Below, in pieces: positions 18,301-43,554 of a DNA stretch of 55,201 bases; position 1 is the stretch's first letter; each line of letters opens with the position of its first letter. The translations under genes were made by a program, and so were the position numbers. Source of the stretch: a virus (lineage: Duplodnaviria; Caudoviricetes); the IMG/VR virus record IMGVR_UViG_3300022200_000056, positions 1 through 55,201 of that record; one strand, given 5' to 3'. The notes under the pieces were generated by a model, which saw only the letters and a list, made by a program, of their open reading frames with translations, did no database searches and was not told the origin of the DNA.

Positions 18301-21300
18301 GCAACGTACAGCAATGCGCGCTATTACCAATCGTGCCAGAGAGATTCTAAAGGAAGATCTTGGTATTGATATCAACAACGCTGACTTCCAAGCGCTGATG
18401 TGGTATCCTGAAAAGAATCTTTTCTATTCATACGGTGTCAGGAAGGGCATTGGTGATGACAACGATTACATTGATGGCGCTATAGCGCTACTACAAAAGG
18501 AAGGCTATGATGTCGAAACAATCGCAGAAGCACTCCCCGAAGCAGACCGAGTCATCGTCCGTGATCGGGCAAATTCCACGTTCTCAACTGAGGAATCTGG
18601 TGATGTCACTCCAATCACAGATGGACAAGAAGAAGGAAGCCCAAGAACTTCTGACCAAGAGCGAAAGCGAAGCATAGCGCTAGTACCAGAGCGCTCATAC
18701 AGTATGAGCAACTCTCGACTTGCCGAGCGAGTAGACCAGCAGACAGCCAAAATATCTTACAACAACGTATCAGGTTTGCTGTCCAAGGTTCTTGGTATAG
18801 CCACCTACAAGATCCCTAAGGCTCTTGGTATAGTCACTGACAAGGACAGAGCAGAGGCTTTGTCTGAAAGGTTCTTTACTAAGTATCAAGATGCACTGTT
18901 GCCAGTGGGTAAACTTTATGACGAGTTGAGCCGTGAGGGCGCCGACATTGTTGACGCCCACGATGCTTACCTACAGGAAGAACTAGCGCAAGGACGTGCT
19001 GGTTATCAGATTGAAAAGAACCAGCAGGAATTGTTTGAGCCTCTTGCTGAAAGCGTGAAGGCTTTGGACGCTACGGATACCAGCCTTTCATCGCTTGCCT
19101 CTGGCTCTAAATTTGTTAGAGATTATTTAGCAGAGGATCAGTCTCCAAAGATTGCACTTGCTGAAGCGTTTTTGTATGCACGGCACGCAAGAGAACGTAA
19201 CGCGTACATCTTAAATAAATACAAGCGCGGCGTTGGCTCTGGTATGTCAGATCAAGAAGCCGATTTTATTATGGATTGGGTGGCAAAGCAAGATCCAACA
19301 CTGCGCTCTCAACTGGACACTGTTGCATCATTTGCAGATGGCATCGTTCAAAGCACTAACAAGATACGCGAAGATGGAGACTTGATCCCAGACCCAGCGA
19401 CTGTACAGGCTGACCCAGAGGGCAAGTGGCAACCAACTAACTTCAGCAACTATGTACCACTGCGTGGAACAATGGAGCCTGACGAAGAGGCGTCTCAAGA
19501 TTACCGCAACTCATCGCGCCGTTCGCCCAACCTGTATGGTTCAAGGGGTAGACTTGAAGCGCGGATGCAAGGACGTGGTGATAGTTATGCCGTAAACATC
19601 TTGGCTAACTTGATGGCTCAGAATCAACAGTCCGTTCAGAAGGCAGAGCGCAACAAGGTTGGTAAGGCTTTCTATGAACTGATCACAAACAGGGACATTG
19701 ACACATCCAACTATGGTGAGGTCATCGACAAATATGATGACTCCATTCGTGACAACATCTTGACTGTTAAAATAAACGGTGAAGAAAAGCATATCGAAAT
19801 CTTTGATGACCGTATCGCACGCGCCCTGAAGGGTGCAATGACGCCAACAAAATCTTCTAGCCTTGTTAGGTTTATGGGAAAAATTAATCGCGTCCTGTCA
19901 AACCTAAACACATCTTGGAACCCAGAGTTTGTTATATCTAACTTTGCCCGTGACCTTGAGACAGCAGCAATTAACATCAATCAGTATGAAGAAAAAGAGA
20001 TAACAAGAGAGATTGTTAAGAACGCATTGCCAGCGGTGAAGGGCATCGCTGGGTTGCTTCGTGGCAATAAGGATAGTGAGTGGGCTAGAATCTACGAAGA
20101 GTTTGTGAAGGCTGGCGGTAAGAACGCGACCAACCAAATGTCAGATCTACAAGATCAGGTTGAGCAACTCAAAGGTATTGTTGATGGCATAGGTAGAGAC
20201 TCTAAGTCTGGCAAACTTGGCTTGGTAAAGAATGGCTTCAGCAAACTTGGCAAATTCCTTGAAGACTACAACACTGCGGTTGAGAACGGCGTTCGCATAG
20301 CAACCTTTGATGCGTTACGCAAGCGAGGATACAGTGAACAAAGAGCAGCACAAGCGGCAAGGAATGTGACTGTTAACTTTGCCAAGGGTGGCGAAGACAA
20401 GGTTCTCATGAACAGCCTGTTCCTATTCTATAACGCATCACTTCAAGGTTCGATGGCACTAGCCAATGCGGCTGTTCGCTCGCCAAAGGTAAGAGCATTA
20501 TGGGGTAGCATGTTTATTTATGGCATGCTTCAAGACCAGTTGATGGGTGCGCTGTCTGACGATGAGGATGGAGACGGTAAGAACGACTATGACGAGTTAA
20601 GTGACTACACTCTTGAGCATAATCTTATTCTACCTAACCCATTTGCAGGAGTTATTGGCGGCAAGTTTATTAAGATCCCACTTGCCTACGGACTTAACAT
20701 GGCGACCAACACAGGGCGCTCAATCAGCCGTGTTATGCGTGGTGAGTACACCGTTGGTCAGGCGAGCGAAACAATTACAGGCACTATGCTTGAACTCCTA
20801 AACCCTCTTGGCTCTGGAATTGAAGACTGGGAAAACATTGCGGCTCCCACTGTAGTAGACCCATTCGTTTCGCTAATGGTAAACAAGGACTACAAGGGCG
20901 ACCCAATCTACAAGTTTAGCTCTCCGTTTGGCTTGCAAAAGCCAGACAGCCAGATGTACTGGAACAACACCAGCCCTGTGGCTCGCACTATCGCACAGCA
21001 AATAAATTCTTTGACCGGAGGAACAGAGGTAACTCCGGGGTATATAGATTTTTCTCCAGATGTTCTTGAGTTTTGGTTTGACTACGTTACTGGCGCCGCT
21101 GGTGCGTTTGTAAGAAGGTCAGTTGAAACTCCGGTCAATGTAACCAAGGCTCTGGCTGGCGACTTTGACGGTGATCTTTCTCGAACACTGCCGATTGTAC
21201 GCAAACTAACAATCTCCCCATCATCATATGAAGATGTGGGAGTTTACATTGAGAACAGGGATAAGATCCTGAGCGCGCGTAAAGAACTTGAGACAGCAAT

Positions 21301-21547
21301 GGCATACAGAGACCCAGCAAACATACGCCGTGTCCGTGCTGAGTATGAAACATTGCTTAGTATATATGGCAATGTCAAGCGTATCGACAACGCTCGGAAC
21401 AGATTGATCAGACAGAAGAACACAATAAGAAACAATCCCATTATGCCAGAGGCAAGGAAGACTGAACTGATTGCTAAGATCAATGAAAGGATTAGTCAGT
21501 TGGTTAAAGAGGCCAACAAGACTATGTATGACGCTGGAATAAGGTAA
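12356..21547 (+). CDS. Large polyvalent (injected, DarB-like) protein with zincin metallopeptidase, ART-like, HhH-like and C-terminal LPD38-like domains
   Basis: 3063 aa; HEVIH..EEAVAEMF; FRIVHDYFGH; VRLTHYS..SYYG; TMDRWWMR..FQALMWY; KIPLAYG..NKDYKGDPIY. Confidence 0.75.
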   Translation: MAVVSTKSPFTGFEYKFKIAGDQPTQQEREVIAQYLIATEKPLQQAPEDQELIETESQGFFSGVGSGVFGSLAQIPAGIVGLGESVLGYNPGETTVGQIAGGASDYLQSGVDYVFGEATDDPYSKAGQTLGSVASFFIPGLGVAKGASLAGAGAKTATALATATAATQGVALGSKEQMDRIQLALENGEQLSDDQMQWATILGGGVGSTEALPIGRLFGQIGKMLRKVPKEEKQTATSIIARRLKNAGTQGLIEGGQEVGAAIMQDLVEQNIYNPDLEITASAYQDDAIYGGGAGATLQFLIDTVGGRRVRKQFDKDRQLENDLREESNEKQFDFGNAQASLGFEQYDDEGNPVQQLLPQPEKVENLEVNVVDETTTGPTEKQLEDSARLKRLALDPTAERELQAQKMREITVGGFAGVDLKNLPDDEQLAVRQYRTRTGIADVDSEIGIQELQDIVTDAYGAERGIAAYNREATKQKPAFFEPKLTEAEQAQQKEASIVNQKVIENFEDMKQSLKDGSILAKDGVISIPKIQRKYKMKVNEARAAVDALAKKGHATPISPTQHKAVLPEGKEEPVQSDKHIKLREFESQLNALRVQAADERRKLQELKERGATNTQEQMEIENQQRVADETSARVEAISERVNTFQALANQSQPDNADRVNAVQITSNEARQAMMESLSAKPTDEYKRTINTVANNLRKYLFKDLGLSDVDLVTQNVLEPERIKSGHVVEAYETSGDAGRRMITIAMEVYNPNLTEAQLTQRLKGVVNHEVIHSLRSLGVITDAEFSMLVKAATNRKYVRSKAGKNLERDYTFMERASIMNRGQSQEYIAEEAVAEMFRAYADGRIKVGGKPKGIFQKIVRFFKSVFRAHSDAGFNSAAELFDGILAGKVGKRQRNLQKAAQAPAGSRYSTAGVRAGYMVPLKGDIERIGQNFKDVTKRVPELEKAANRLADGEITYEEYDNIVNEFKPIMPYQTVPAPETMEDMRRALSATAPKKLEKLGKASNIEVGTPISLRLDIPAYRYQGVWVPTIHDSNNRVIAHEATAVIQNVSFSASERTGLRIAQGGEKGPYATIKGSFVGSNPDADFALAQQLLLDPSVVQVGFDPTRHAYFYDRVTTQPVIGADLVVQVGPLVLAKNPQFGRKPDFKYSVARLPNTPSNLLGPIDVVHDVKDRYLKSVGMPMRRQAEYVQVNEDLARRIAGAFQEAEDSPLDPDVRAAYKAMADETKAQWQFIKDTGINIEFIKQGQDNPYPNGSRDVLLDIRDNNHMWVFPTEDGFGVEEITDEQRVLNPLLDKVGERIDGLDVTVNDLFRIVHDYFGHGLEGATFTARGEENAWQAHVRMYSPLAARAMTTETRGQNSWVNYGPYGDQNRANPGETVYADQKLTLLPDFVVNEGVAPDLEIEDGRIVEETNGPNGGSRVGRSDLGRVGRTGAGQAGDAGKIRARSVAPVPSVNEDGKVRLTHYSSVEDIDTVDPERHGSNVMMRGDERERRVGFSSIYPPRSYYGLNVGEDGGYSKSKDSWNIGDSMYITEVPLESLYNWDADPENFKDKAIATIPDHLTVSRDRSNHATTMTEKLIKDSGYLGYYANSPMGLAAAVFNPLKVRPNLSEAPKYSIARLTPEQYKLTSLGNVNTEVGDPENRYYIPQAPYNTVILVDAAQNMQNDRGNVVLDWSDPNNWEEIATLIAAEAEAAYSRDGNAIGWYDKTLSLAKRITSVLFPDVKPGTADEAAYQYATAVTSNGIGVIPNWQYAAEQYRNWKETGKFIEKGFGNQGGSMVNAFALYNTMKDMGYTDLEIKEFLSQKMTVRELRQNNVVRALGITVDAKESVDTEVYVSYIMGPKIGQGFYQNLNGNFETLTMDRWWMRMFNRITGEPFKNVTERTVANNEARVLKAVNNMPLREAEAELVKASLDVINADIVTDANVQEFAIELNNQFQNYRVRRIKAGYGEPKKSELLLAADTAAKNFTTQMQEDPRTAKQRTAMRAITNRAREILKEDLGIDINNADFQALMWYPEKNLFYSYGVRKGIGDDNDYIDGAIALLQKEGYDVETIAEALPEADRVIVRDRANSTFSTEESGDVTPITDGQEEGSPRTSDQERKRSIALVPERSYSMSNSRLAERVDQQTAKISYNNVSGLLSKVLGIATYKIPKALGIVTDKDRAEALSERFFTKYQDALLPVGKLYDELSREGADIVDAHDAYLQEELAQGRAGYQIEKNQQELFEPLAESVKALDATDTSLSSLASGSKFVRDYLAEDQSPKIALAEAFLYARHARERNAYILNKYKRGVGSGMSDQEADFIMDWVAKQDPTLRSQLDTVASFADGIVQSTNKIREDGDLIPDPATVQADPEGKWQPTNFSNYVPLRGTMEPDEEASQDYRNSSRRSPNLYGSRGRLEARMQGRGDSYAVNILANLMAQNQQSVQKAERNKVGKAFYELITNRDIDTSNYGEVIDKYDDSIRDNILTVKINGEEKHIEIFDDRIARALKGAMTPTKSSSLVRFMGKINRVLSNLNTSWNPEFVISNFARDLETAAININQYEEKEITREIVKNALPAVKGIAGLLRGNKDSEWARIYEEFVKAGGKNATNQMSDLQDQVEQLKGIVDGIGRDSKSGKLGLVKNGFSKLGKFLEDYNTAVENGVRIATFDALRKRGYSEQRAAQAARNVTVNFAKGGEDKVLMNSLFLFYNASLQGSMALANAAVRSPKVRALWGSMFIYGMLQDQLMGALSDDEDGDGKNDYDELSDYTLEHNLILPNPFAGVIGGKFIKIPLAYGLNMATNTGRSISRVMRGEYTVGQASETITGTMLELLNPLGSGIEDWENIAAPTVVDPFVSLMVNKDYKGDPIYKFSSPFGLQKPDSQMYWNNTSPVARTIAQQINSLTGGTEVTPGYIDFSPDVLEFWFDYVTGAAGAFVRRSVETPVNVTKALAGDFDGDLSRTLPIVRKLTISPSSYEDVGVYIENRDKILSARKELETAMAYRDPANIRRVRAEYETLLSIYGNVKRIDNARNRLIRQKNTIRNNPIMPEARKTELIAKINERISQLVKEANKTMYDAGIR

Positions 21548-21574
21548 AAGCGGAGCCGTTTCCGACACCGCTTT
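21547..21574. terminator. Bidirectional intrinsic terminator between convergent operons
   Basis: AAAAGCGG..CCGCTTTT inverted repeat right after the polyvalent gene stop. Confidence 0.7.
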
Positions 21575-21605
21575 TACCAGCCGAACACGTTTCCGTGCTG
21601 TTAAG

Positions 21606-21812
21606 TTATATAGAACTATCCCTTTTCATGTCAAGCCATTTCTTAACCTCTTCAACCTTCCAACATCTGTTGCGAGGGCTGAGGTATATAGCCTTTGGGA
21701 AGTCATCGTTCTGCTTTATTATATACTTGGCCTTCCTTGTATTGTCCACCAACAGCATGTCGGCAAGACCCCTTATGTTTACTAAGCCGTTGCTGACTTG
21801 CCCATTTTCCAT
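21606..21812 (-). CDS. AlpA/excisionase-like HTH protein
   Basis: LVNIRGLADML..DFPKAIYLSPRNRCWKVEEVKKWL. Confidence 0.75.
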   Translation of the reverse strand: MENGQVSNGLVNIRGLADMLLVDNTRKAKYIIKQNDDFPKAIYLSPRNRCWKVEEVKKWLDMKRDSSI

Positions 21813-22252
21813 GACTCAAATCCTTCTTGTAGTTGTTTGAAGCGCTCACGCGCATTTGAATTATTGTGAAGCTCTGATCTACTCTCAATGCCAAGATATG
21901 ATCTGAGGCCATGCACCACTTGCTTCTCCCTCTTCTCATCATCGATACTGTCGTAGTCTTCAATCAGACCTTGACGGTAAATGTAATCAGCAAAGTCAAA
22001 GTTGCGACACAGCATTCCTGCTGATGCAACCATAGCGTCAGTCTCCCTTTTGTGCTGAGGGATCTCAGGTTGATCGTGGTCATCTAACTTTACCAGCGCC
22101 ACCATGTAGCGTGAACCAACCCAGTCAGTGTGTAGACTTGGGGGAACCTCGTTTGGATGGATGGCAAGACGCAGGATAGTCCCTGCTTTACTTTGAGACA
22201 TCGATGTCTTGACTGCCTCAAATGATACGGTAGCATCTCTAACGTCATTCAT
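21782..22252 (-). CDS. Hypothetical protein
   Basis: 156-aa ORF in leftward operon; LRSYLGIESRSEL motif. Confidence 0.7.
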   Translation of the reverse strand: MNDVRDATVSFEAVKTSMSQSKAGTILRLAIHPNEVPPSLHTDWVGSRYMVALVKLDDHDQPEIPQHKRETDAMVASAGMLCRNFDFADYIYRQGLIEDYDSIDDEKREKQVVHGLRSYLGIESRSELHNNSNARERFKQLQEGFESWKMGKSATA

Positions 22253-22433
22253 CTTTTACATTCCCCTCAAGTTCTTTTAGATCTTTTATGACACGCCTTT
22301 TCTTCAGGCCATAGAAATCTCCACGCTTCATGTTGGACCCATACCTTCTGTTGCTTCTTTTGCCAACAGATGTCTCTATCTTTGGCGGCGTCCTAATCAT
22401 TTCGAGTATGGCCTTGGTATCTTCAATGCTCAT
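22245..22433 (-). CDS. Hypothetical basic protein
   Basis: Overlap-coupled small ORF. Confidence 0.55.
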   Translation of the reverse strand: MSIEDTKAILEMIRTPPKIETSVGKRSNRRYGSNMKRGDFYGLKKRRVIKDLKELEGNVKDE

Positions 22434-22672
22434 GGCGCGCTCCCTGCCATCATTATCTCTTGCGTTGTACTGTCATGATGTGTTTTGCCAACAAAGTTCC
22501 TCACGAATGTAGTCTTCTTAATGCCACCAGCAATGCGGTGGTATGTGATGATCTCTTGCTTGAACACATTGTCAATGTCGTCTGGGAAAAACTCATCCCC
22601 AAGTTTGTCACTCAAACTGCAAAGCCTGTTAGTAGGCAAGTAACAAAGGTCTTCTTCAATCGATTGTTTCAT
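22430..22672 (-). CDS. Hypothetical protein
   Basis: GGAGA RBS before ATG at 22672; coupled ORF. Confidence 0.6.
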   Translation of the reverse strand: MKQSIEEDLCYLPTNRLCSLSDKLGDEFFPDDIDNVFKQEIITYHRIAGGIKKTTFVRNFVGKTHHDSTTQEIMMAGSAP

Positions 22673-22934
22673 AGTAGTCTCCATCTCCCATTTCTTTCAA
22701 CACTATCCTGCCAAGCGCCACATCAATCATGGCACACCACATGTCCATTCTGTTGTGATACTTTGGCAGATGCTGTATTACTTCCATCATCTCTGTGCTT
22801 GGATATCTCATTGCACAGATTGCTTGTCTTGCCACCTCTGAATAATCAGAGACCGACATCTCAATACCTTGCTCCTCAAAACGCTTTATGGCTTCGTAAA
22901 TAGCAAGGCCAACTCGTTCATGTAATTTATCCAT
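22656..22934 (-). CDS. Hypothetical protein
   Basis: ARQAICAMRYPSTEM..WCAMIDVAL; start overlaps upstream stop. Confidence 0.6.
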   Translation of the reverse strand: MDKLHERVGLAIYEAIKRFEEQGIEMSVSDYSEVARQAICAMRYPSTEMMEVIQHLPKYHNRMDMWCAMIDVALGRIVLKEMGDGDYYETID

Positions 22935-23202
22935 TGAACTTCTCCCAGTTGTTCTTCGCCCAAGCAAGTGGGTCTACGCCTTTTAGATCCCACCAACTTC
23001 TCTCATCACCGAAAGCATGTAACTTCATGTGGCAAAAGTGGCACAGAGGAACACACCAATTGTCTCCCACCTTCATCCCCAGAGAATTAGGCTCTGCGAA
23101 CATGATGTGGTGTGCCTCTGCGCCATACCCACAGACCAAGCAAGGTTGCCCACGCAGGGTCTGTAGATATTTCTTAGAGCGAACTCTCTTAGAACGGAAC
23201 AT
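22927..23202 (-). CDS. DUF968-like HNH/Zn-finger protein
   Basis: RSKKYLQTLRGQPCLVCG..AHH..VPLCHFCHMKLH. Confidence 0.8.
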   Translation of the reverse strand: MFRSKRVRSKKYLQTLRGQPCLVCGYGAEAHHIMFAEPNSLGMKVGDNWCVPLCHFCHMKLHAFGDERSWWDLKGVDPLAWAKNNWEKFNG

Positions 23203-23482
23203 TGTCATCAAGATTGTTAGACTGCTGTTGCCGAGGTTCGGCGCCATTGCCACGCTCCTCATACACATTCCCGATGATTGATAGGAACTGCTTGCCAGCC
23301 TTACTGACTTTCTTCCAACCAACCAAAGAGATCTGTGGCTTCTCAACGCCACGCTCCATCTGAGACACAAGATCGTTCACGACCTCGTCAGATAATTCCA
23401 ACTTACCTGTGTAGTCTGGACTCTTCTCAGATTTCTTTTTGCTGTTCACAAACAGCGCGCCTGATGGATCATAGTTACTCAT
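23189..23482 (-). CDS. Single-stranded DNA-binding protein (small OB-fold type)
   Basis: GALF..PDYTG..WKK..FLSI and acidic DDNVPF tail; adjacent to Sak. Confidence 0.7.
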   Translation of the reverse strand: MSNYDPSGALFVNSKKKSEKSPDYTGKLELSDEVVNDLVSQMERGVEKPQISLVGWKKVSKAGKQFLSIIGNVYEERGNGAEPRQQQSNNLDDNVPF

Positions 23483-24132
23483 GCCGCTTCTCCTTTTGGC
23501 TCAAGAGTTTCTTTGTGTGATAAAAAGTTCTGTAGAACTTCGTTGTAAAGAGCCTCATCATTCTTCTTCAGAAGATCGATAGCCTCTTTGTTTGAACCCC
23601 AGAATGTTCTAAGGTTATCTACTGTGTCGCACTCAGGAATGAATGTCTTAAATGCAACCGCTACAGTTGACCAATCAGATGCGGTCTCTTTGTTACCGTC
23701 CTTACTGACAACATCTACTTGTAATGGTTTCTCTTCAGCGCCGACAGGAAGATCCTCACCAGCGTAAATGTAATGACCAAGACCGTGCATGGCTATGCAC
23801 TTTGCCAAGGCTCTTTGAAGAGATGAGTTTACAGCGAAAGCATCTGGGTGCTTTACTGCTTTGTTTCTGAAATCAAGAACAGGGAAGACCTCAGTTAACG
23901 TCTTCTCTTCCACAGTCACGCTTACCATAACAAAGGCAAAGCCCTGATCGTCTTTCATGTACGGCACAAGCCGACCATCTGCCTCATGCAGATGCTTTTC
24001 AAATGTAGAGTTTGGATAATGTCCAAGCAGACATCCCCAAGCCCAAGCCCAACTCAGATAAGTCAAGCCATTCTTTTCTTCAGTGTGTTCACTGACATCA
24101 ATTTTAGATAAGGTCTCCCAAACACTGCTCAT
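23479..24132 (-). CDS. Sak-like single-strand annealing protein (DUF1071 type)
   Basis: LSKIDVSEHTEEKNGLTYLSWAWAW..QRALAKCIAMHGLGHYIYAGEDLP. Confidence 0.85.
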   Translation of the reverse strand: MSSVWETLSKIDVSEHTEEKNGLTYLSWAWAWGCLLGHYPNSTFEKHLHEADGRLVPYMKDDQGFAFVMVSVTVEEKTLTEVFPVLDFRNKAVKHPDAFAVNSSLQRALAKCIAMHGLGHYIYAGEDLPVGAEEKPLQVDVVSKDGNKETASDWSTVAVAFKTFIPECDTVDNLRTFWGSNKEAIDLLKKNDEALYNEVLQNFLSHKETLEPKGEAA

Positions 24133-25010
24133 TCCAATTCTCCTTTATACTGTGAGCAAAATTCAGCAACACCGCAGTAGTTGCCCTTACACCGTGTGTG
24201 TTCACCAGCACGGTATTCTATTTCAGTCGGCACAGTTTGTGCCGCTGAGAAATCGTTAGCGTCATTGACATTATCAAAGACACGCATGGCTCTCTTCAAG
24301 CCCTTCTTCTTTACAGCCCACGCATCGGGCTTGCTCCATCGTTCTTCGCTTGTGCATAAAATAAACTTGTCTTCAAGTTCTTCTTCCATGTCGTATGTAA
24401 TCTGCGCCCCCTTGTGGTAGGCGAGGCGCTCATGAACATATCTGATGCGCTCTTGGTCAGACCATAGTGGCACATCCACTGTTACCACTGGGGCTTGTGG
24501 GTAGTCAGGCTTGTTGTCTGCGTCACGCCTGTTCCAATCTCTCAGGATAGCGCAGATCTGCAAGCGGCTAACCTTTATACCTTTAGATTTTTGTACAAGG
24601 AATGCGTATGTGTTGAGTTGGTTTTCCCACTCAGGCTTGCCGTAGATTACAGACCAGACACTAGTTACTTTGTAGTCCGTGATCTCAATTGAGTTCCCAT
24701 TCATACGCTGATGATCGATAGCACCTGAAAGTACCCACTCACCGTCTGAATAAAACAAACGCTCTTCCCTGACAACATCTTCGCCATCGTCCTGTTCGAG
24801 GATGTGATGAACGGCTGTGCCAAACAAAGGCCAGATCATATCAACAACATCCGTTGTCATGTTGCTGGCATAGTGTTCCTTCATAAGCCTCACGCGAGGG
24901 CTGTCAATCAAGGTGGTGACAGAGATATCTGCCGCGCCCTTCGAATAGTTGTCACGCTTTGCGAAATTGACAAAAGCGTCAGGTAGTTTATGGTTATTTG
25001 TATACTGCAT
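24129..25010 (-). CDS. PD-(D/E)XK (Cas4-like) exonuclease
   Basis: GTAVHHILE, LSGAID, ITDYKVT, QLNTY, C-terminal RC..YC....FC. Confidence 0.85.
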   Translation of the reverse strand: MQYTNNHKLPDAFVNFAKRDNYSKGAADISVTTLIDSPRVRLMKEHYASNMTTDVVDMIWPLFGTAVHHILEQDDGEDVVREERLFYSDGEWVLSGAIDHQRMNGNSIEITDYKVTSVWSVIYGKPEWENQLNTYAFLVQKSKGIKVSRLQICAILRDWNRRDADNKPDYPQAPVVTVDVPLWSDQERIRYVHERLAYHKGAQITYDMEEELEDKFILCTSEERWSKPDAWAVKKKGLKRAMRVFDNVNDANDFSAAQTVPTEIEYRAGEHTRCKGNYCGVAEFCSQYKGELE

Positions 25011-31146: not shown

Positions 31147-32274
31147 CTATGCCGCCACCTGTATTCTTGTTGTTTCACCGATGGGTGCATCATTGCAATC
31201 CATATCGGTTGATACCCATAGCACTGGGTAATCTGGTGTTTCATTCGGATAGTCGAAGATGCCCATGTCAGTCAGGTAAACCATAGCATCGCATGGTATC
31301 TGATTGTCATAGACATAATCGAATACAGGCATGACGCGAGTGCCGCCTCTACCCTTGGCCTCGACACCGTTGATGTACTCGCCTTGAGCATACTCAGTCA
31401 CAGACTGAACCTCAGCATCGCAGACGATCAATGTGATAGAGCGCGGATTAAAATCCTCAATCAACTGGTTGAAGACACCAAGGAAATATTCCTGCTCACG
31501 CATCGATACACTGCCACTGCTATCCCAGCCCAGCACGATGTCACCGACACCGACACGATCAACTGCTGGCATGTATATGCCTTGGGTGTAGTACACTTTG
31601 CGATTGCACCGCCGCCATGTGTAATCTTCTGGCTGATCACCGCCAACAAATCTGCGGATCACATCCATCCAATCAACTTGAGAACGCCGCATGCGCGACA
31701 CCATCTCTTTAATCTTAGATGGTAGTTTGCCAGCGTTCTCAGCCGCCTGTGCCGCCATGAAGACACGCTGGTCTACATCTGCCGCCATCTGCTCCAGATC
31801 GCCCTGAGAGGGCTGTGAGCCGTCTTCATTGGATGCATCCATGACGATGCCCCATGATGGCTGATCCGCGCCGCCATCAGACTGAGGCAACAGGTCAAAT
31901 ATTTTCTCTGCCGCCATGCCTTTGTACTGCTCACTGAACAGGCCATCTTCTGGCAGGACAAAGCCGCCATCGGTGAGGATGTCATTGATGGCGTAGTCGG
32001 TGGCGATGTTCCATTTTTTATGATCACGATCACCGCGCCGCAGATGATGTTTCATCACGATGTGCATGACCTCATGAGCGATTACGCCCTTGATCTCATC
32101 CTCACTGTGACGGTCAACGAAGGGCTCTGCCCAGATGATCTTCTTGCCATCGGTTGCCATCGTCTCGATGCTATCATCTTGTACAAAATGACATCCAAGT
32201 GCGATGCTACCGAAGAAGGGGTGCTTGACCATTAGACTGGTCTTGCACCGTGCAATTTTTAGATTAGCATCCAT
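31147..32274 (-). CDS. Metallopeptidase-VWA protein (DUF2201-like)
   Basis: TMATDG, HEVMH, WNIATDYAIN, MIDAS DSSGS, GRGGT, YLTD. Confidence 0.9.
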   Translation of the reverse strand: MDANLKIARCKTSLMVKHPFFGSIALGCHFVQDDSIETMATDGKKIIWAEPFVDRHSEDEIKGVIAHEVMHIVMKHHLRRGDRDHKKWNIATDYAINDILTDGGFVLPEDGLFSEQYKGMAAEKIFDLLPQSDGGADQPSWGIVMDASNEDGSQPSQGDLEQMAADVDQRVFMAAQAAENAGKLPSKIKEMVSRMRRSQVDWMDVIRRFVGGDQPEDYTWRRCNRKVYYTQGIYMPAVDRVGVGDIVLGWDSSGSVSMREQEYFLGVFNQLIEDFNPRSITLIVCDAEVQSVTEYAQGEYINGVEAKGRGGTRVMPVFDYVYDNQIPCDAMVYLTDMGIFDYPNETPDYPVLWVSTDMDCNDAPIGETTRIQVAA

Positions 32275-32304
32275 GCTAGTCTCCATAAAAAAGTTCTATA
32301 TAAC

Positions 32305-33321
32305 TTACACAAGGGTAAGCGCGGAACCGTTGGTCAACGCCCACTGGCGAAGAGCCTCAACCTTTTTCAATTCAGGATCACGGCTCACCGCATCCTTGAT
32401 GACGAAGGCAGAAAATTCTTGCTGAGGCAGACGATTGAGGTATGCGATGATCTTGCCAAGGTTGGTTTGATTTGCCTTAAATGCCAGACCAGCACAGATT
32501 GCGTATGTCACCGCAGGATCTTCACTGATCATTGCAATCTCAGGATTAGCAATCAACTCATCGAGATCTGGACAGGTGTCATAGATCTTGAGAAACCCAA
32601 GAAAATCTGCACAGGCAGGACGCCCTACCTGACCAGCGATTGCCTCAGTCTGGCAGACTGCATCCAGCCCCCATCCCATGACAGATGACACCCTATCCCA
32701 TGATCGTGGCGATGGCGATGCATTGGCATCACGATCAAATTTATGTAACCATTCTGGGCGAAAGCGCAGGAACGCACAAATGCGTTGATCGACACCAACC
32801 TTATTGAAGTAGCCGATGGCATCCTCAAGGTCAGCCTCGATCTCCAAGAACATCAGGCGATCTTTAAGATGCGATGGCATGGTGTTTGTACCAGCGCGGT
32901 CACTGGTGCGATTGCCAGCCGCCACGATAGCCCAGCCATCAGGCAGACGGTGCTGACCGACACGCCGCTCATTGACGATTTGTGCGGCGATGTTCTGGTT
33001 GGCGACTGGTGCTTGAGGCAATTCATCCAAGAAGAGGATGCCCTCACCTTCCGAAGGCATCCAGTCTGGGCGAAGGCGTTTCATACCATCACCATCATTG
33101 ACCAGCCATCCTGCAAGTTCGCCAGCATCATACTGAGCAAGCGAAACGACAAGACACTGAACATCACGGCTTTTGGCGATGTCCTGAACAACGGTTGTTT
33201 TACCAAGACCAGCACCGCCGATCAGGTATGGGATTGGACGCATTGCATCGCGGCCTTGGGCGTTGGTGATTTGGCTGTCGATTGAAGCCTCGACAATGGC
33301 TTTTGATTGAGTAAGACGCAT
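32305..33321 (-). CDS. MoxR-like AAA+ ATPase
   Basis: Walker A GGAGLGKT, Walker B LFLDE, AAGNR, SPRSW; paired with VWA gene. Confidence 0.9.
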   Translation of the reverse strand: MRLTQSKAIVEASIDSQITNAQGRDAMRPIPYLIGGAGLGKTTVVQDIAKSRDVQCLVVSLAQYDAGELAGWLVNDGDGMKRLRPDWMPSEGEGILFLDELPQAPVANQNIAAQIVNERRVGQHRLPDGWAIVAAGNRTSDRAGTNTMPSHLKDRLMFLEIEADLEDAIGYFNKVGVDQRICAFLRFRPEWLHKFDRDANASPSPRSWDRVSSVMGWGLDAVCQTEAIAGQVGRPACADFLGFLKIYDTCPDLDELIANPEIAMISEDPAVTYAICAGLAFKANQTNLGKIIAYLNRLPQQEFSAFVIKDAVSRDPELKKVEALRQWALTNGSALTLV

Positions 33322-33353
33322 AACTTTTCTCCTTGTTTGCGTTGGTTATATGG

Positions 33354-33418
33354 CGAGATGCCACGACACCCCCGAAGGGGTGTTTCGACAGTTTCTCATG
33401 CTGTCATCGTCAGGTAGC
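33354..33418 (-). ncRNA. Hammerhead ribozyme, type I
   Basis: GCUAC-CUGACGA-U-GACAG(CAUGAGAAA)CUGUC-GAAA-CACCCC(UUCG)GGGGUG-UC^GUGGC; loop II UGAGA can pair with downstream UCUCG. Confidence 0.9.
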
Positions 33419-33419
33419 G

Positions 33420-34085
33420 TTATGCGGCATCAAGTGCGCCCAGCACCTTGTCCACAACTTCATTTTCAGATGCGGCATCAGCCATAGCCTTTGCCGCCGC
33501 ATCATCTGATGCAAGCCGTGCGGCCTTCAACTCGCGGCACGCATCATCGAACTCAGCCCAATCCATCGCATCGTATTTGGATGGCTTGAATGAACCAGTT
33601 ACGGTTTCTTTGCCGAACAACTTTTCTGCCAGTTTAAACATCTCAGATTTGCCAGCGTCACCATCGACAGCATCCATGAGTTTTTTCTCGCTATCAATTT
33701 CATGATCATCAAACACTGCCCTGACCATTTCGGGCGTTACGTTGTCGCCGCCAATGCCCAACTTGTGGCGAGCCTTGACGCTGTTCTCTTTCAGTTTCTT
33801 GGCGGTGGCTGGCTTGATGTATGCACCCAACTCTTCGCTCAGTTGTTTAGACACTGTGGCAGGAAGGCGTTTGTTCTTGCCATTGCCAACCAACCCGACT
33901 GGCGAGATCGCCACGATCAGGCTGACGTACTGGTTAATCTTATGGGCATTCATCTGCTGGGTGTTCGCGTTGTTCTCCATGGTGCGTGCCTTGTTCTCGC
34001 CGCGCAAATTAGCAATGGATGCCTCAGCATTGGCAATGTCTGCCATGGTGTTGTCGAAATTTTGAGTGTTAAAAATGTCCTGCAT
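33420..34085 (-). CDS. Hypothetical early protein
   Basis: AGGAGA RBS; 221 aa, Ala/Asp-rich helical. Confidence 0.75.
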   Translation of the reverse strand: MQDIFNTQNFDNTMADIANAEASIANLRGENKARTMENNANTQQMNAHKINQYVSLIVAISPVGLVGNGKNKRLPATVSKQLSEELGAYIKPATAKKLKENSVKARHKLGIGGDNVTPEMVRAVFDDHEIDSEKKLMDAVDGDAGKSEMFKLAEKLFGKETVTGSFKPSKYDAMDWAEFDDACRELKAARLASDDAAAKAMADAASENEVVDKVLGALDAA

Positions 34086-34117
34086 AATAGTCTCCTGTGA
34101 ATTGCAGTTGGTTGGTG

Positions 34118-34285
34118 TTATTTCCAGATCACTTCAATTTGTGAAGTTTTCTCATCGGTCTTCCATTCGCCGATAGGCTTGCGTGACATGGTGCAGAACA
34201 CCTTGCCAGCGCGGTCACCTACGACCTTTTCGAAACGATCAATTTCATTAAGAAAATCGTTAAATGTTTTGAAGATCTCTTTCAT
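34118..34285 (-). CDS. Small hypothetical protein (55 aa, not in ORF track)
   Basis: MKEIFKTFNDFLNEIDRFEKVVGDRAGKVFCTMSRKPIGEWKTDEKTSQIEVIWK with GGAGA RBS. Confidence 0.65.
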   Translation of the reverse strand: MKEIFKTFNDFLNEIDRFEKVVGDRAGKVFCTMSRKPIGEWKTDEKTSQIEVIWK

Positions 34286-34287
34286 GG

Positions 34288-34491
34288 TTATTCTCCCTTG
34301 AACTCAAAACGCTGGTCAAAATATGCAGGGTTGTCAGAGCATGCGATAGCATCCTTAACCTGTTGGACATTCATCCATCCGCACATTGCCATCTCGAAGG
34401 CATCATCGAAGTTGATGAAACCAAGATTAGCCAAGGTCTTCAGTGCCTCGCGGCGGATAGGTGTGAGTTTAGCATCTGCAATTTTAGACAT
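34288..34491 (-). CDS. Small hypothetical protein, first gene of leftward operon
   Basis: AGGAGA RBS overlapping hammerhead stem III; 67 aa. Confidence 0.7.
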   Translation of the reverse strand: MSKIADAKLTPIRREALKTLANLGFINFDDAFEMAMCGWMNVQQVKDAIACSDNPAYFDQRFEFKGE

Positions 34492-34499
34492 CGTTGTCT

Positions 34500-34549
34500 C
34501 CTGTTTCGTGGTTACTCTTCAGCATGGCGTACCAATCGCCATGGACAGG
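34500..34549 (-). ncRNA. Hammerhead ribozyme, type III
   Basis: CCUG-UC^CAUGGCG(AUUGGUA)CGCCAUG-CUGAAGA-GU(AACC)AC-GAAA-CAGG; complete core and complementary loops. Confidence 0.88.
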
Positions 34550-34550
34550 G

Positions 34551-34783
34551 GGGCAAGTTACCCTGCCCCGAACCCAGCCGCAGGAACTCACGCCCCTGCC
34601 AGATTTACCGCCCCACAAGCGCGAGCGCATCACTGCGGTCACACCCGATCTGTATCTCGAACTGCCCCATCGCAAGCGCGACAGGTGGGCTGGGTGACAT
34701 CGCCTCACCACTCCGTGAGGTAGAAGATCTGGGGCTGGTTACCAGAATGCCGAAGGTTGCCAAATCAGGGGCTGTGAACCCCT
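34551..34783 (-). ncRNA. Large unclassified structured RNA (multi-junction, GNRA loops)
   Basis: About nine nested or adjacent helices, GUGA x2 and GUAA tetraloops, G-U pairs favour the minus strand, no credible ORF. Confidence 0.65.
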
Positions 34784-35103
34784 TTGTCATATAGCCGCAG
34801 ATGGTTGTCAACCCCCCCTAATGGCTTTTTTTGGTCATTAATGGATATGTGTGACATATATGCAACAGTTAAAGGTCGAAATCGTCACTGGCGGCTTCTG
34901 GAAGATAGCCGTGTGTGATTATAAGCCAGAATACCTAAAGGCGCTCAGTGAGGCTTAAAACGCCAGTAATCGGCATTATTGGTTATTCTTTGCCAGTGTT
35001 GTTTCGGGGACGTAAATGGTAAAGTTATATAGAACAATTGAACGGCGAGACCAAAACCACGCCCAAGCGCAAGCGCATACTGGCGGCACACAGGGAATAC
35101 ATA

Positions 35104-35574
35104 ATGGGTAGAGATAAAGACAAAGATAAGATCATTAAACTAGTACCAGCATCGGATGGCCTCACTAGCAAACAGGAAACCTTCGCCAAGTTGGTAAGTG
35201 AGGGGCAGACACTCACTGATGCCTATCGATCAGCGTACAGCGCAGAAAAGATGAAGGATAGTTCAGTATGGGTTGAAGCATGCAAGTTGAGGCAACACCC
35301 CAAGGTGTCCCAAAGGATAGAGGCGTTATCAGGTGAGATCACCGCACGTCAGGCATCTGAAGACGAACGGCTCAGGATATTTGTGACTGAACAGTTGAAG
35401 CATGAGGCTTTGGGTGCAGGATCAGACAGCGCAAGGGTTCAGGCACTGGTGGCATTGGGCAGATCGGTGGCAATGTTCAGTGACAAGGTTATCGAAGAGG
35501 ACAGCACACACCGCACAGCGTCTGAGATTGAGGCTGAGATCCAAGATCGCCTGTCGCGACTGCTTGGTTCCTGA
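35104..35574 (+). CDS. terS: Terminase small subunit
   Basis: LTSKQETFAKLV..TDAYRSAY..ACKLRQHPKVSQRI..ARVQALVALGR. Confidence 0.8.
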   Translation: MGRDKDKDKIIKLVPASDGLTSKQETFAKLVSEGQTLTDAYRSAYSAEKMKDSSVWVEACKLRQHPKVSQRIEALSGEITARQASEDERLRIFVTEQLKHEALGAGSDSARVQALVALGRSVAMFSDKVIEEDSTHRTASEIEAEIQDRLSRLLGS

Positions 35575-35688
35575 TCTGTCTGGGGGTGGACACAGCGCAT
35601 TCCGCACTGGCTTGACCCCCACCCCACCCCATCCCCCCTGTATGGCGCGGCGCATACAACACACTATACACTGTGAAATGCACAACCA

Positions 35689-35898
35689 ATGAGTATCCTA
35701 GAAAATCTAGACATCTGCCAAGGTAATTGCATCTTAGATGATGAGAAATGTATAATTTGCTGTAGGTCCTTTCATGAAATAGCCGTGTGGGACGATTTAA
35801 CGCCCTCTGAGAGGGATTGGATGACTACTATGGTGCAGGGTAGGCAGGATAGACTCTGGACGCTCTGGTGGGGCTCTGAGAGCGTTTTAAAGAATTAG
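35689..35898 (+). CDS. DUF1289-like Cys-rich protein
   Basis: CQGNCILDDEKCIICCRSFHEIAVW..SER. Confidence 0.7.
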   Translation: MSILENLDICQGNCILDDEKCIICCRSFHEIAVWDDLTPSERDWMTTMVQGRQDRLWTLWWGSESVLKN

Positions 35899-35998
35899 CA
35901 TAATTTAATAGTTCTCTAGAACTTTTACCCCCCCCTATTCTTAAAAATTATTTTGCTAGTTATAATTTTAGGGAAGGGGTTCTTTCTAGGAAAGTACC

Positions 35999-36232
35999 CT
36001 AGGAATCCTGTGCCCCCACGTTGGCACCGTACATCTGTAAGGTTTCCCAGCCATCTTCTAGCTCTTCTTCAGGGGGCGGCTTTAGGTTTTCCTTGGCATA
36101 TTCCACGCCAGCCTTTATTGCGTGGTAAATTCCGGAAGATATCATGGCGGATTTTACCTTATCGCACATATCTATCGTGACCGTGGCGCTACCGTCTTCG
36201 TGCTCAACAACATCAACAACTTCTATTTTCAT
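35999..36232 (-). CDS. Small hypothetical protein
   Basis: MKIEVVDVVEHEDGSATV motif; GGGAG RBS. Confidence 0.6.
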   Translation of the reverse strand: MKIEVVDVVEHEDGSATVTIDMCDKVKSAMISSGIYHAIKAGVEYAKENLKPPPEEELEDGWETLQMYGANVGAQDS

Positions 36233-36250
36233 TAAAATCTCCCTCGTCCC

Positions 36251-36333
36251 TTACTAGTTATAATAACATATAACTAGTTATAATTATATATATACATAAC
36301 TAGTTATAAGTAGTAAATAGTTATATACTAGTT
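36251..36333. repeat. AT-rich island of ACTAGTTATA repeats
   Basis: Four ACTAGTT copies, including palindromic TATAACTAGTTATA. Confidence 0.7.
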
Positions 36334-36335
36334 GG

Positions 36336-36399
36336 GCGGGCTGATGTCTCCCCTGCCCGCAGGGGGAGTTGAGCGTGGTCCTCCCGACGCTCCTCCCCC
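36336..36399 (+). promoter_or_regulatory. Two GC-rich hairpins with CUCCC loops (late-operon leader or sRNA)
   Basis: GCGGGC/GCCCGC with loop UGAUGUCUCCCCU; GGGGGAG..GAGCGU/ACGCUC-CUCCCCC with loop GGUCCUCCCG. Confidence 0.45.
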
Positions 36400-36415
36400 A
36401 CCTTAAGGAGAACGA

Positions 36416-36661
36416 ATGAGCAACAAAGTTATAAACTTCCCCGGCGTTAATTTTAAAAACGATGGAATGGGGGATATAGACCCAGACGATATGCTGAAGG
36501 CTATTGCTGAGGAGTCTGTGCTAGACAGCGTTGTTGTGCTAGGCTGGACAAAGGAAAACAATTTATTTGTTGCCACCAGTGGGGAAAGCGGCCCCGAGAT
36601 TATTTTTCTAATGGAGATTGCGAAGTCGGTTATTGTTAACAGATGTTTGCAGATTGAATAA
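36416..36661 (+). CDS. Hypothetical protein
   Basis: AAGGAG RBS; NKVINFPG..VVVLGW motif. Confidence 0.7.
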   Translation: MSNKVINFPGVNFKNDGMGDIDPDDMLKAIAEESVLDSVVVLGWTKENNLFVATSGESGPEIIFLMEIAKSVIVNRCLQIE

Positions 36662-36909
36662 TGTTTACTGCCATGGTTTATGCTTGTTTGACTTTAAGTT
36701 CAGAGTCATGTCTTATCTTTAAAGATAAATGGGGACCAAGCAAAACCATCGAAGAATGCCTAAAGCGAACAAATGAAATGGCGGCGGTAGTAGCAAGTTT
36801 GGGTTATAAGCCACTGGCGTATAAGTGTGAGAGATCGGGAGTTAATACACACATCGATGAATCAGTTACAATCCGTACAAGACAAAATAAAAAACCTTCC
36901 GCTATCTGA
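36661..36909 (+). CDS. Hypothetical Cys-containing protein
   Basis: MFTAMVYAC..C..GP..EEC..R; coupled ORF. Confidence 0.55.
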   Translation: MFTAMVYACLTLSSESCLIFKDKWGPSKTIEECLKRTNEMAAVVASLGYKPLAYKCERSGVNTHIDESVTIRTRQNKKPSAI

Positions 36910-42458: not shown

Positions 42459-42894
42459 TAGAACCCCACGCTCCAATACTTCCCGTGAAACAGAGGGAAG
42501 AAAAAAAACTTGGCAAAGACCGACTATGTTGCCCACCCCCGAACCCCGCGAAGGCGTAGAGTATCGCTGGATTCGCACCACAATGATGGGTGATAGCGAC
42601 AATAAGAATGTGTCTTCAAAATTTCGTGAGGGTTGGACGCCAGTAAAGGCAGAAGATCACCCAGAGCTCCAAGTGTTGCCGGATATCGATTCTCGATTTG
42701 AAGGTAATGTTGAGGTTGGAGGATTGCTACTTTGCGAGAACTCAACCGATTATGTGGAAAGCCGTAGGGAAGCGCACGATGAAATGGCGCATTCGCAGAT
42801 TCAATCTGTCGATAACAATTACCTACGTCAATCCGATCCTCGTATGCCTGTTCTGAACCCAGAGCGGTCTACGAAAACTTCGTTTGGTAAGTGA
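42451..42894 (+). CDS. Hypothetical head-module protein
   Basis: YRWIR..REGWTPV..VGGLLLC; lies between scaffold and capsid genes. Confidence 0.7.
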   Translation: MSDRTPRSNTSRETEGRKKTWQRPTMLPTPEPREGVEYRWIRTTMMGDSDNKNVSSKFREGWTPVKAEDHPELQVLPDIDSRFEGNVEVGGLLLCENSTDYVESRREAHDEMAHSQIQSVDNNYLRQSDPRMPVLNPERSTKTSFGK

Positions 42895-42951: not shown

Positions 42952-43554
42952 ATGTCTTCAACTGCCGCTCCTTTCGGTCTGCGTCCGATTAATCGTTTAG
43001 GTTCTGGTTCTCAGGAAGTTTTCCGCCAGTATCCTATTGCGTCTGCTTATGGCACTAACATTGCTATGGGCGACATCGTTCAACTTGTGGACGGTGGCAC
43101 TGCAACGACAATCGAAAAGCAGTCCGCTACTGGCGATGATACGACAGAAATCGACATCGTTGGTATTTTCATGGGTTGTTCTTATACAGACCCAAATACC
43201 GGTCAACTGACCTTCAGCCAAATGTGGCCAGCAAGCACTGTTGCTTCTGACGCAATGGCATTTGTTGTTGATAACCCAAATGTAGAGTTTGTTATCCAAG
43301 CGGATGGCGCACCTACAAACACTGGTGACATCTACGGCAAAAACACCCTGCTCGTTCAAACTGCACCGAACACAACCTTTAAGGTTAGCCGTGTGGCTTT
43401 GGATATCTCCGAAATCAGCACTGATGCACAGAACCCAATCCGGATTCTGGACTACCTCGGTGGTGATAAAGGCGATGAAAAGGGTACGTCTTATCCGTTG
43501 TTGGTATGTAAATTTAACTACCACCAGCACACTTCAACAACTGGTTCTGCATAA
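42952..43554 (+). CDS. Capsid decoration/cement-like protein
   Basis: APFGLRP N-terminus, beta-rich, directly before MCP. Confidence 0.65.
   Translation: MSSTAAPFGLRPINRLGSGSQEVFRQYPIASAYGTNIAMGDIVQLVDGGTATTIEKQSATGDDTTEIDIVGIFMGCSYTDPNTGQLTFSQMWPASTVASDAMAFVVDNPNVEFVIQADGAPTNTGDIYGKNTLLVQTAPNTTFKVSRVALDISEISTDAQNPIRILDYLGGDKGDEKGTSYPLLVCKFNYHQHTSTTGSA

Follow-up and report, generated by a model that had tools for sequence, protein, structure and literature searches.

A candidate type I hammerhead ribozyme with a loop II pseudoknot and an alternative 5′-terminal hairpin upstream of a phage MoxR-like ATPase gene

Two early genes of a freshwater tailed phage are separated by a short segment whose RNA resembles a self-cleaving ribozyme, which raises the question of whether this RNA cuts itself and what such a cut would do to the neighbouring messages. 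The DNA analysed here, referred to as the window, is a single IMG/VR virus record (IMGVR_UViG_3300022200_000056; Duplodnaviria, Caudoviricetes) of 55,201 bases with an estimated completeness of 93%. On its minus strand, the TAA stop codon (33422-33420) of an open reading frame (ORF) of 221 amino acids (aa) (34085-33420; orf221) precedes the ATG (33321-33319) of a gene for a 338-aa MoxR-like AAA+ ATPase (33321-32305), which was assigned from its ORF and from PHROG and Pfam matches. Based on the sequence and its relatives, we consider it probable, at roughly 80%, that the segment between them encodes an active type I self-cleaving hammerhead in a leftward polycistronic phage transcript.

The minus strand at 33418-33360 can be read directly as a complete type I hammerhead, consisting of stem I, the CUGACGA core, stem II, GAAA, stem III, and the cut site; stem I is open, and stems II and III each end in a loop. 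GCUAC (33418-33414) forms the 5′ strand of stem I, for which helix I covariation provides support, and leads into core positions C3 to A9, CUGACGA (33413-33407), which agree with the consensus C3 U4 G5 A6 N7 G8 A9. Stem II pairs GACAG (33405-33401) with CUGUC (33391-33387), and its G33405-C33387 pair corresponds to G10.1-C11.1, although an extra U (33406) intervenes between A9 and G10.1. The 9-nucleotide (nt) loop II (33400-33392) holds a pseudoknot strand, UGAGA (33398-33394). The GAAA that follows (33386-33383) provides G12, A13, and A14 (33386-33384) as well as A15.1 (A33383), with which stem III begins; this stem of 7 base pairs (bp) (33383-33377 with 33372-33366) includes the A15.1-U16.1 pair (A33383-U33366) and carries a UUCG loop (33376-33373). 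Both stem II and stem III are supported by sequence, folding, and covariation. C17 (33365) completes a GUC triplet directly before stem I, in keeping with the consensus H17 (not G), and the hammerhead consensus applied to the sequence places the predicted scissile bond at 33365/33364, with G33364 as the new 5′-OH end. The 3′ strand of stem I, GUGGC (33364-33360), is followed by a single spacer base, A (33359), and then by the 3′ strand of the pseudoknot, UCUCG (33358-33354). An initial annotation, made from the letters alone, had already written out this hammerhead, with a stop codon adjoining it and a cut about 43 nt before the ATPase AUG. The minus-strand sequence agrees with that string to the base, the TAA lies one base from stem I, the predicted bond leaves a 43-nt leader, and the type I identity is borne out by covariation in all three stems, as described below.

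The evidence that carries this assignment is comparative. A sensitive blastn search of 50,697 phage records, with the element and its surroundings (1 kb) as the query, returned one match. It lies in Caulobacter phage S2B, spans 67 nt with 81% identity, and coincides exactly with the ribozyme; the element is conserved between S2B and the window, but the flanking sequence is not. The S2B copy has an identical core, including the extra U, and the same pseudoknot strands, and its differences from the window are compensatory, with an A-U to C-G change in stem II, two changed pairs in stem III, and a C-G pair in place of the U·G pair of stem I in the window. A pattern based on the core common to the window and S2B retrieved 33 IMG/VR stretches, corresponding to 29 distinct sequences. 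For 24 of these pattern copies, the alignment has 95.3% of its stem cells paired, whereas a shift of the partners by 1-3 columns leaves 34-44%, and both members vary in 10 of 17 pairs. A covariance model built from pattern copies (R1) found 64 sites in 34 loci (hereafter numbered with L), of which 54 are distinct and many do not match the pattern. With filters off, R1 gives the window element 71.2 bits and the next of the 27 matches listed 10.4 bits, consistent with a single copy in the window. A second model (R2) was built from 57 copies of other phages and prophages, excluding the window, its near-identical relative L027, L033, and S2B, and it finds the window element at 55.3 bits (E = 1.4e-13).

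The 57 copies behind R2 show 94.5% of cells paired, against 29-42% for slid partners, with both-side changes in 12 of 17 pairs, and their A15.1-U16.1 pair is A-U in every case (57/57). The cleavage triplet is GUC in 55 and UUC in 1 of the 56 contexts listed. The relative L033 is 91.8% identical to the window over 3279 nt, yet only 1 of 74 ribozyme positions differs; this is a C for U in the 5′ strand of stem I, which turns the U·G pair into a C-G pair and thus improves it. The core reads CUGAYGA or CUGAAGA also in the 27 copies found by the model only, and it is invariant in the pattern copies, where it is fixed by the pattern. As the pattern also fixed the pairs next to the core, the comparative evidence rests on the positions that it left free and on these 27 model-only copies. 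Judged by sequence comparison, it is decisive, and the element is far beyond chance.

The pairing of loop II with the tail after stem I was examined across the same relatives. For a single sequence, four or five pairs of the kind that can form between UGAGA and UCUCG in the window could be a matter of chance. Among the copies, however, the strands vary in concert, as GGC/GCC, UGGUU/AACCA, UUGAC/GUCAA, UAGUU/AACUA, UGGGA/UCCC, UUAGC/GCUAA, and GACGA/UCGUC. Over 26 distinct tails, each with one representative, the summed Watson-Crick complementarity is 100, compared with 74.3 ± 4.1 for permuted tails, and none of 5000 permutations reaches this value; the permutation test replaces a cross-control whose values the abundant GGC/GCC pseudoknots had inflated. 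Stem I/II pseudoknots were described by Perreault et al. (2011; PMC3088659) for all three topologies, at a frequency of about 40% of hammerheads, and the mutation and rescue experiments of these authors demonstrated that fast cutting depends on the pseudoknot.

A second pairing involves the first bases of the predicted 3′ product. GUGGC (33364-33360), the 3′ strand of stem I, can alternatively serve as the 5′ arm of a hairpin with GCCAU (33354-33350), a 3′ arm that is supported by folding and by recurrence across copies. In general, the predicted 3′ product opens with four to five bases that can pair with those immediately following the pseudoknot strand, and the two arms co-change, with GCGG/CCGC in most copies, GUGG/CCAC in L023, GUGGG/CCCAC in L042, GUGGC/GCCAU in the clade of the window, and GGCA/UGCC and GGCG/CGCC in L021. 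In 38 of 44 distinct predicted products, the pairing probability of bases 1-4 exceeds 0.5, with a mean of 0.86 compared with 0.60 for tail-shuffled sequences (Wilcoxon p = 5e-8). Of 55 distinct products, 43 can form a helix of 4 bp or more that begins at base 1, and 0 of 2000 tail shuffles attain the observed total. Pattern-only copies, whose tails were unconstrained, show the hairpin in 21 of 29 cases, compared with 8.8 on average and at most 16 after shuffling. In a minority of copies (L005, L011, L020, L013, and their relatives) the hairpin starts at base 3 instead. Both tertiary and alternative pairings had been proposed for the window in the initial annotation, and both now extend to the family, the pseudoknot covarying over the 26 tail types and the GUGGC/GCCAU type of hairpin recurring in the 43 of 55 products. 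A closed-stem-I topology that uses the downstream hairpin was also considered and rejected, as no CUGANGA follows the hairpin.

Nearest-neighbour energies for the window are −22.6 kcal/mol for the hammerhead fold without the pseudoknot, −24.2 kcal/mol for the alternative fold, and about −4.6 kcal/mol for the pseudoknot duplex, so that the two folds are close in energy before cleavage. After the predicted cut, the hairpin should be favoured over stem I because stem I is then intermolecular.

The position of the element relative to the flanking genes is likewise repeated among the copies. In 54 of 56 distinct contexts, the same strand carries an ORF of 50 or more codons that terminates close to the ribozyme. 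The stop codon of 47 of these 54 ORFs falls inside the ribozyme or no more than 10 nt from stem I, and that of 19 is the UGA of the core CUGA, counts to be read with the facts that the ORF calls are crude and that the core always supplies a stop in one frame. On the other side, a Shine-Dalgarno-like motif and a start codon follow in 51 of 56 contexts, at a median of 37 nt after the predicted cut; in the window, the Shine-Dalgarno sequence AAGGAG (33334-33329) stands 7 nt before the ATPase start. Because the type I topology puts the cut about 50 nt after the stop codon, the upstream message would keep its stop and gain two 3′ hairpins. The core with the extra U also reads UGA-CGA-UGA in one frame (33413-33404, minus strand), giving two in-frame stops; the upstream ORF of the window runs in another frame than these and ends at the TAA.

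Stop codons that abut or lie inside the ribozyme are what the idea of ribosome-modulated folding requires, and this idea leads to the most serious of the competing explanations, in which the ribozyme is real but regulated. The GUGGC/GCCAU hairpin would then represent an OFF state, terminating ribosomes would melt the 5′ strand of stem I, and both cutting and ATPase expression would follow the translation of orf221. The slightly greater stability of the alternative fold over the pseudoknot-free hammerhead, the transcription of the competing strand only about 5 nt after the pseudoknot strand, and the stop positions in the 47 of 54 contexts, 19 of them on the core UGA, are all compatible with such a switch; in S2B, the annotated coding sequence (CDS) gp060c ends on the core UGA. 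On the other hand, the tight spacing may be mere economy of phage genomes, the pseudoknot together with tertiary contacts favours the active fold, and no sequence feature tells a switch from a post-cleavage latch. We regard regulation of this kind as unlikely, and a hammerhead that folds and cuts as it is transcribed is preferred.

Several observations weigh against an active hammerhead. A minimum free energy fold calculated without pseudoknot terms chooses the alternative hairpin over stem I, and this inactive fold may compete before cleavage. Stem I has only 5 bp, one of which is U·G. The extra U33406 in the core departs from the hammerhead consensus. The fold of the single sequence (−24.6 kcal/mol; z = −1.82) is unexceptional, since 12 of 200 shuffles fold equally well. 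The core and its adjoining pairs are fixed by ascertainment, as the pattern and the models were derived from this element. When tails are swapped among heads, the hairpin is of weak significance (77 of 5000 permutations), which is due to the fact that 46 of 55 products begin with the same four bases. Rfam models give the window element no significant hammerhead score, as detailed below. Lastly, of 24 sequencing runs listed, 3 are RNA, and contigs of these three RNA runs and one DNA run were compared over 32800-34100; the metatranscriptome contigs cover 33147-33329 and parts of 33651-34100, and none spans 33365/33364, although contigs cannot show RNA ends, so that this coverage supports neither side.

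The extra base after A9 deserves closer attention. In the 27 copies that do not match the pattern, the corresponding column is occupied by U (14 copies), G (9), or A (1) and is empty in 3, counts that are biased towards U by a model built from U-bearing copies; in some of the copies with G, this base may instead be a regular G10.1 with a bulged A after it. Two other registers were rejected for the window: placing U33406 at 10.1, paired to the following G, removes G12, and a longer insert at N7 leaves unpaired bases before GAAA. An extra base at this place is known from other hammerheads. The CChMVd (+) hammerhead has an extra A10 there and still self-cleaves (PMC1636495), and an extra base at the same position is a conserved feature of the hammerheads of Penelope-like elements (PMC4209133). 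These ribozymes share with the phage element a single base inserted at the same core place and kept by selection. They differ in that they belong to a viroid and to eukaryotic retroelements and rely on loop-loop contacts or are minimal, whereas the phage element has a U insert, type I topology, and a pseudoknot. A U at this position reportedly speeds the CChMVd ribozyme, a finding attributed to De la Pena and Flores (2001).

The absence of the element from Rfam annotation was examined in several modes. The initial annotation had suggested a cmscan search with hammerhead models, and this check did not turn out in its favour, as Rfam 15 in gathering mode reports no hammerhead family on the window. 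In E-value mode over 33250-33520 (271 bases), the only hammerhead match is a partial one to Hammerhead_II, with 12.4 bits and E = 8.3 against a gathering score of 37, and Hammerhead_1 (RF00163) alone gives nothing at E ≤ 10. The window element thus shares the type I topology and the conserved core bases with RF00163 and clan CL00010 but stays below every gathering score. Of the defining sequence and structural features examined, it lacks only a strict A9-G10.1 adjacency and a sufficient Rfam score. Furthermore, among 14 of the 34 related loci searched with Rfam 15, no copy reaches any hammerhead gathering score, copies with a canonical core included. The miss is not due to the extra U alone, because the canonical-core copies in L016 likewise fall below the gathering score. 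We take it as a limit of the models' reach, not as evidence against the fold. The subtype is therefore widespread and yet not annotated by current Rfam models, an annotation gap for a form whose stem I has 5 bp, whose core is followed by one more base after A9, and whose loop II forms a pseudoknot with the tail. As a separate observation, the sole gathering-level Rfam match in the window is a Mu-gpT-DE RNA (RF03012; 44543-44596, plus strand; 67.8 bits, E = 1.1e-13), which stands before an ATG in the late (head) region.

The inserted base and the Rfam result could also be explained by a decayed, catalytically dead look-alike, in which the extra U has inactivated the core and the hairpins act passively, for example as a barrier to 3′ exonucleases or as an RNase entry site. 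Such a loss has precedents, as Perreault et al. (PMC3088659) found reduced activity for some natural insertions in the core (A6a) and no activity for some variants. However, the U recurs in 14 of the 27 non-pattern copies and in diverse phages and prophages with the core bases kept throughout, and the three stems covary together with the pseudoknot, which points to selection on the whole catalytic fold rather than on isolated hairpins. In addition, the self-cleaving CChMVd (+) and Penelope-like-element hammerheads tolerate a base at the same position (PMC1636495; PMC4209133), and Rfam also misses the canonical-core copies in L016. Taken together, we consider a dead look-alike quite improbable. 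It is barely credible that the likeness to a hammerhead is a coincidence and that the UUCG hairpin acts as an intrinsic terminator or arose by chance, for although stem III is a strong, GC-rich 7-bp hairpin with a UUCG loop, it lacks the U-run of an intrinsic terminator, a promoter and terminator scan of 32300-36900 placed none of its 9 terminator sites and no promoter-like site in 33345-33420, the independent model R2 recognizes the element (E = 1.4e-13), and the element is conserved in S2B while its flanks are not.

Is the ribozyme tied to the gene that follows it? The upstream 221-aa ORF has no Pfam or PHROG match. The ATPase matches PHROG 1297 (E = 5.7e-73) and, weakly, Pfam AAA families, and a tblastn search with it against phages gave 834 records, all below 60% identity. 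Its closest relative in a cultured phage, at 41.2%, is annotated as a MoxR family ATPase in Roseobacter phage CRP-7, where the gene has an upstream gap of 24 nt with no R1 match. In the window, the ATPase gene forms a pair (31147-33321, minus strand) with the next gene, whose product carries DUF2201_N metallopeptidase (E = 1.7e-41) and DUF2201 VWA-like (E = 4.2e-18) domains. A DUF2201 metallopeptidase/VWA-like protein is the usual partner of MoxR. The family of this gene, PHROG 1314, is labelled 'HNH endonuclease', a label that conflicts with the Pfam domains. The other copies of the ribozyme are followed by 49 distinct downstream ORFs, mostly of 60-130 aa, among which four Pfam families are matched, by at most 5 of the 49, and no common function appears. 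A MoxR-specific association was rejected on the basis of these ORFs and of the CRP-7 MoxR gene without a ribozyme, and the ATPase gene appears to be an unusual passenger of the subtype, not the rule. The genes beside phage hammerheads have similarly been described as small and non-conserved (PMC6155905).

The subtype extends well beyond the window. Phage S2B (MN857473.1; L002) carries two copies on its minus strand, at 42475-42550 and 43054-43137, which R2 scores at 54 and 28 bits, and the record annotates only hypothetical CDSs there. The 46-kb viral contig behind L016 has 16 copies within about 8 kb (16715-24786, plus strand), roughly one per small gene, and copies with and without the extra base after A9 stand side by side. 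In genome contigs, the subtype occurs in prophage-like regions of Bacteroidota, Bacillota, Alphaproteobacteria, and Betaproteobacteria. The pattern scan of such contigs gave 39 stretches, of which 12 loci with at least 45 bits in R1 were used. Nine others, at 16.8-24.5 bits, look like chance matches in coding DNA, and 18 have no R1 match at E ≤ 0.01; by this model, these 27 are not hammerheads. Eleven of the 12 loci entered alignment A5 and the hairpin counts, L044 being omitted from A5. L070, a duplicate of L020/L035, was left out of A5 and of the count of 55 products and was included in the pattern-only test of 29 copies. A different kind of clustering was seen in the viral contig L029 (6955-8692 and 4599-4977, minus strand), in which four twister-sister ribozymes (80-85 bits), the only Rfam matches in the 14 of 34 loci searched, and two hammerheads of the subtype share a same-strand stretch of about 4 kb. 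This locus is an example of different self-cleaving classes in one operon.

Hammerheads have been known in phages since 2011, with clustering and pseudoknots already established (PMC3088659). Those of phages and prophages described by Perreault et al. (PMC3088659) cut in vitro and in E. coli and flank single genes. The window element resembles them in its catalytic core, three-way junction, and stem I/II pseudoknot, and also in genomic setting, as both are intergenic in phage operons, occur singly or in clusters, and flank genes of varied identity. The role proposed by these authors, the cutting of long phage transcripts into gene-length mRNAs, is the one proposed here. The extra U between A9 and G10.1 is absent from the insertions named in their main text (A6a, U13a, and G2a/C2b), and this text does not mention a 5′-terminal hairpin of the 3′ product or an adjacent stop codon, although the supplementary alignments may list the subtype. 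The literature passages searched gave no description of the extra U in phage hammerheads, of the 5′ hairpin, or of a fixed layout, which does not prove their absence. The strand-swap hairpin and the fixed order of stop codon, ribozyme, hairpin, and Shine-Dalgarno sequence may therefore be new.

Two other systems provide useful comparisons. In the pistol-like pseudoknot hammerhead (PDB code: 8YDC; Zhan et al., 2024; PMC11300833), the core, the catalytic strategy, and the presence of a pseudoknot are alike, but the pseudoknot helix replaces helix II, whereas the window element retains helix II as a normal hairpin, the loop of which pairs with the tail 3′ of stem I. The synthetic insulator RiboJ consists of the sTRSV hammerhead and a 23-nt hairpin, and when it cuts itself, the RNA upstream is lost and the remaining transcript has a defined, structured 5′ end (PMC8794103). 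The arrangement of a hammerhead and then a hairpin before the ribosome-binding site is common to both. RiboJ is, however, engineered from a type III satellite-RNA hammerhead with the hairpin as a separate add-on, so that the likeness is one of functional analogy only, not of membership. The window hairpin reuses the 3′ strand of stem I, and its full formation therefore requires the displacement of stem I.

These features suggest a sequence of events for the preferred reading of a hammerhead that cuts during transcription. Stems II and III would fold once the orf221 stop codon has been transcribed. Transcription of the 3′ strand of stem I and of six further bases would allow stem I and the 5-bp pseudoknot to form and to lock stems I and II side by side, and the RNA would then cut itself after C33365. 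The upstream mRNA would keep its stop codon and have the hairpins of stem II and stem III (UUCG) at its 3′ end, which would carry a 2′,3′-cyclic phosphate, and the mRNA of the MoxR-like ATPase would begin at G33364 with a 5′-OH. Its first five bases could then swap from the upstream strand to GCCAU, giving a 5′-terminal hairpin at the head of the 43-nt leader. This strand swap would free the upstream piece, oppose religation, and cap the new end. Ends with a 5′-OH and a terminal hairpin resist 5′-end-dependent RNases. In line with the initial annotation, the hairpin-bearing 5′-OH end may stabilise the mRNA, and terminating ribosomes may affect folding. The outcome would be a punctuation of the polycistronic early transcript, in which the stability and translation of neighbouring genes become uncoupled.

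Extending this scheme to the whole subtype, we tentatively propose a two-state 'cut-and-latch' cassette that would be a natural counterpart of RiboJ. Sitting on or against a stop codon, it would make its cut irreversible by a strand swap to bases downstream that repeat the 5′ strand of stem I, release an upstream mRNA that ends in hairpins, and cap a 5′-OH mRNA about 37 nt before the next start codon. Each early gene could thereby have its own stability and translation, and the cut may be gated by upstream translation. The ribozyme itself is no surprise to a specialist, and the definition of the hammerhead is unchanged. Reviews still call the biological role of phage hammerheads open (PMC6155905; PMC6765202), and the cut-and-latch scheme, if true, would be a concrete and testable answer to this long-standing question. 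The fixed layout of stop codon, ribozyme, strand-swap hairpin, Shine-Dalgarno sequence, and start codon turns the general notion of 'mRNA processing' into specific mutational tests. Moreover, the subtype sits unannotated in a cultured phage of a genetically tractable host, and Caulobacter phage S2B would then serve as a culturable test system. The cassette could also be used as a compact natural insulator part.

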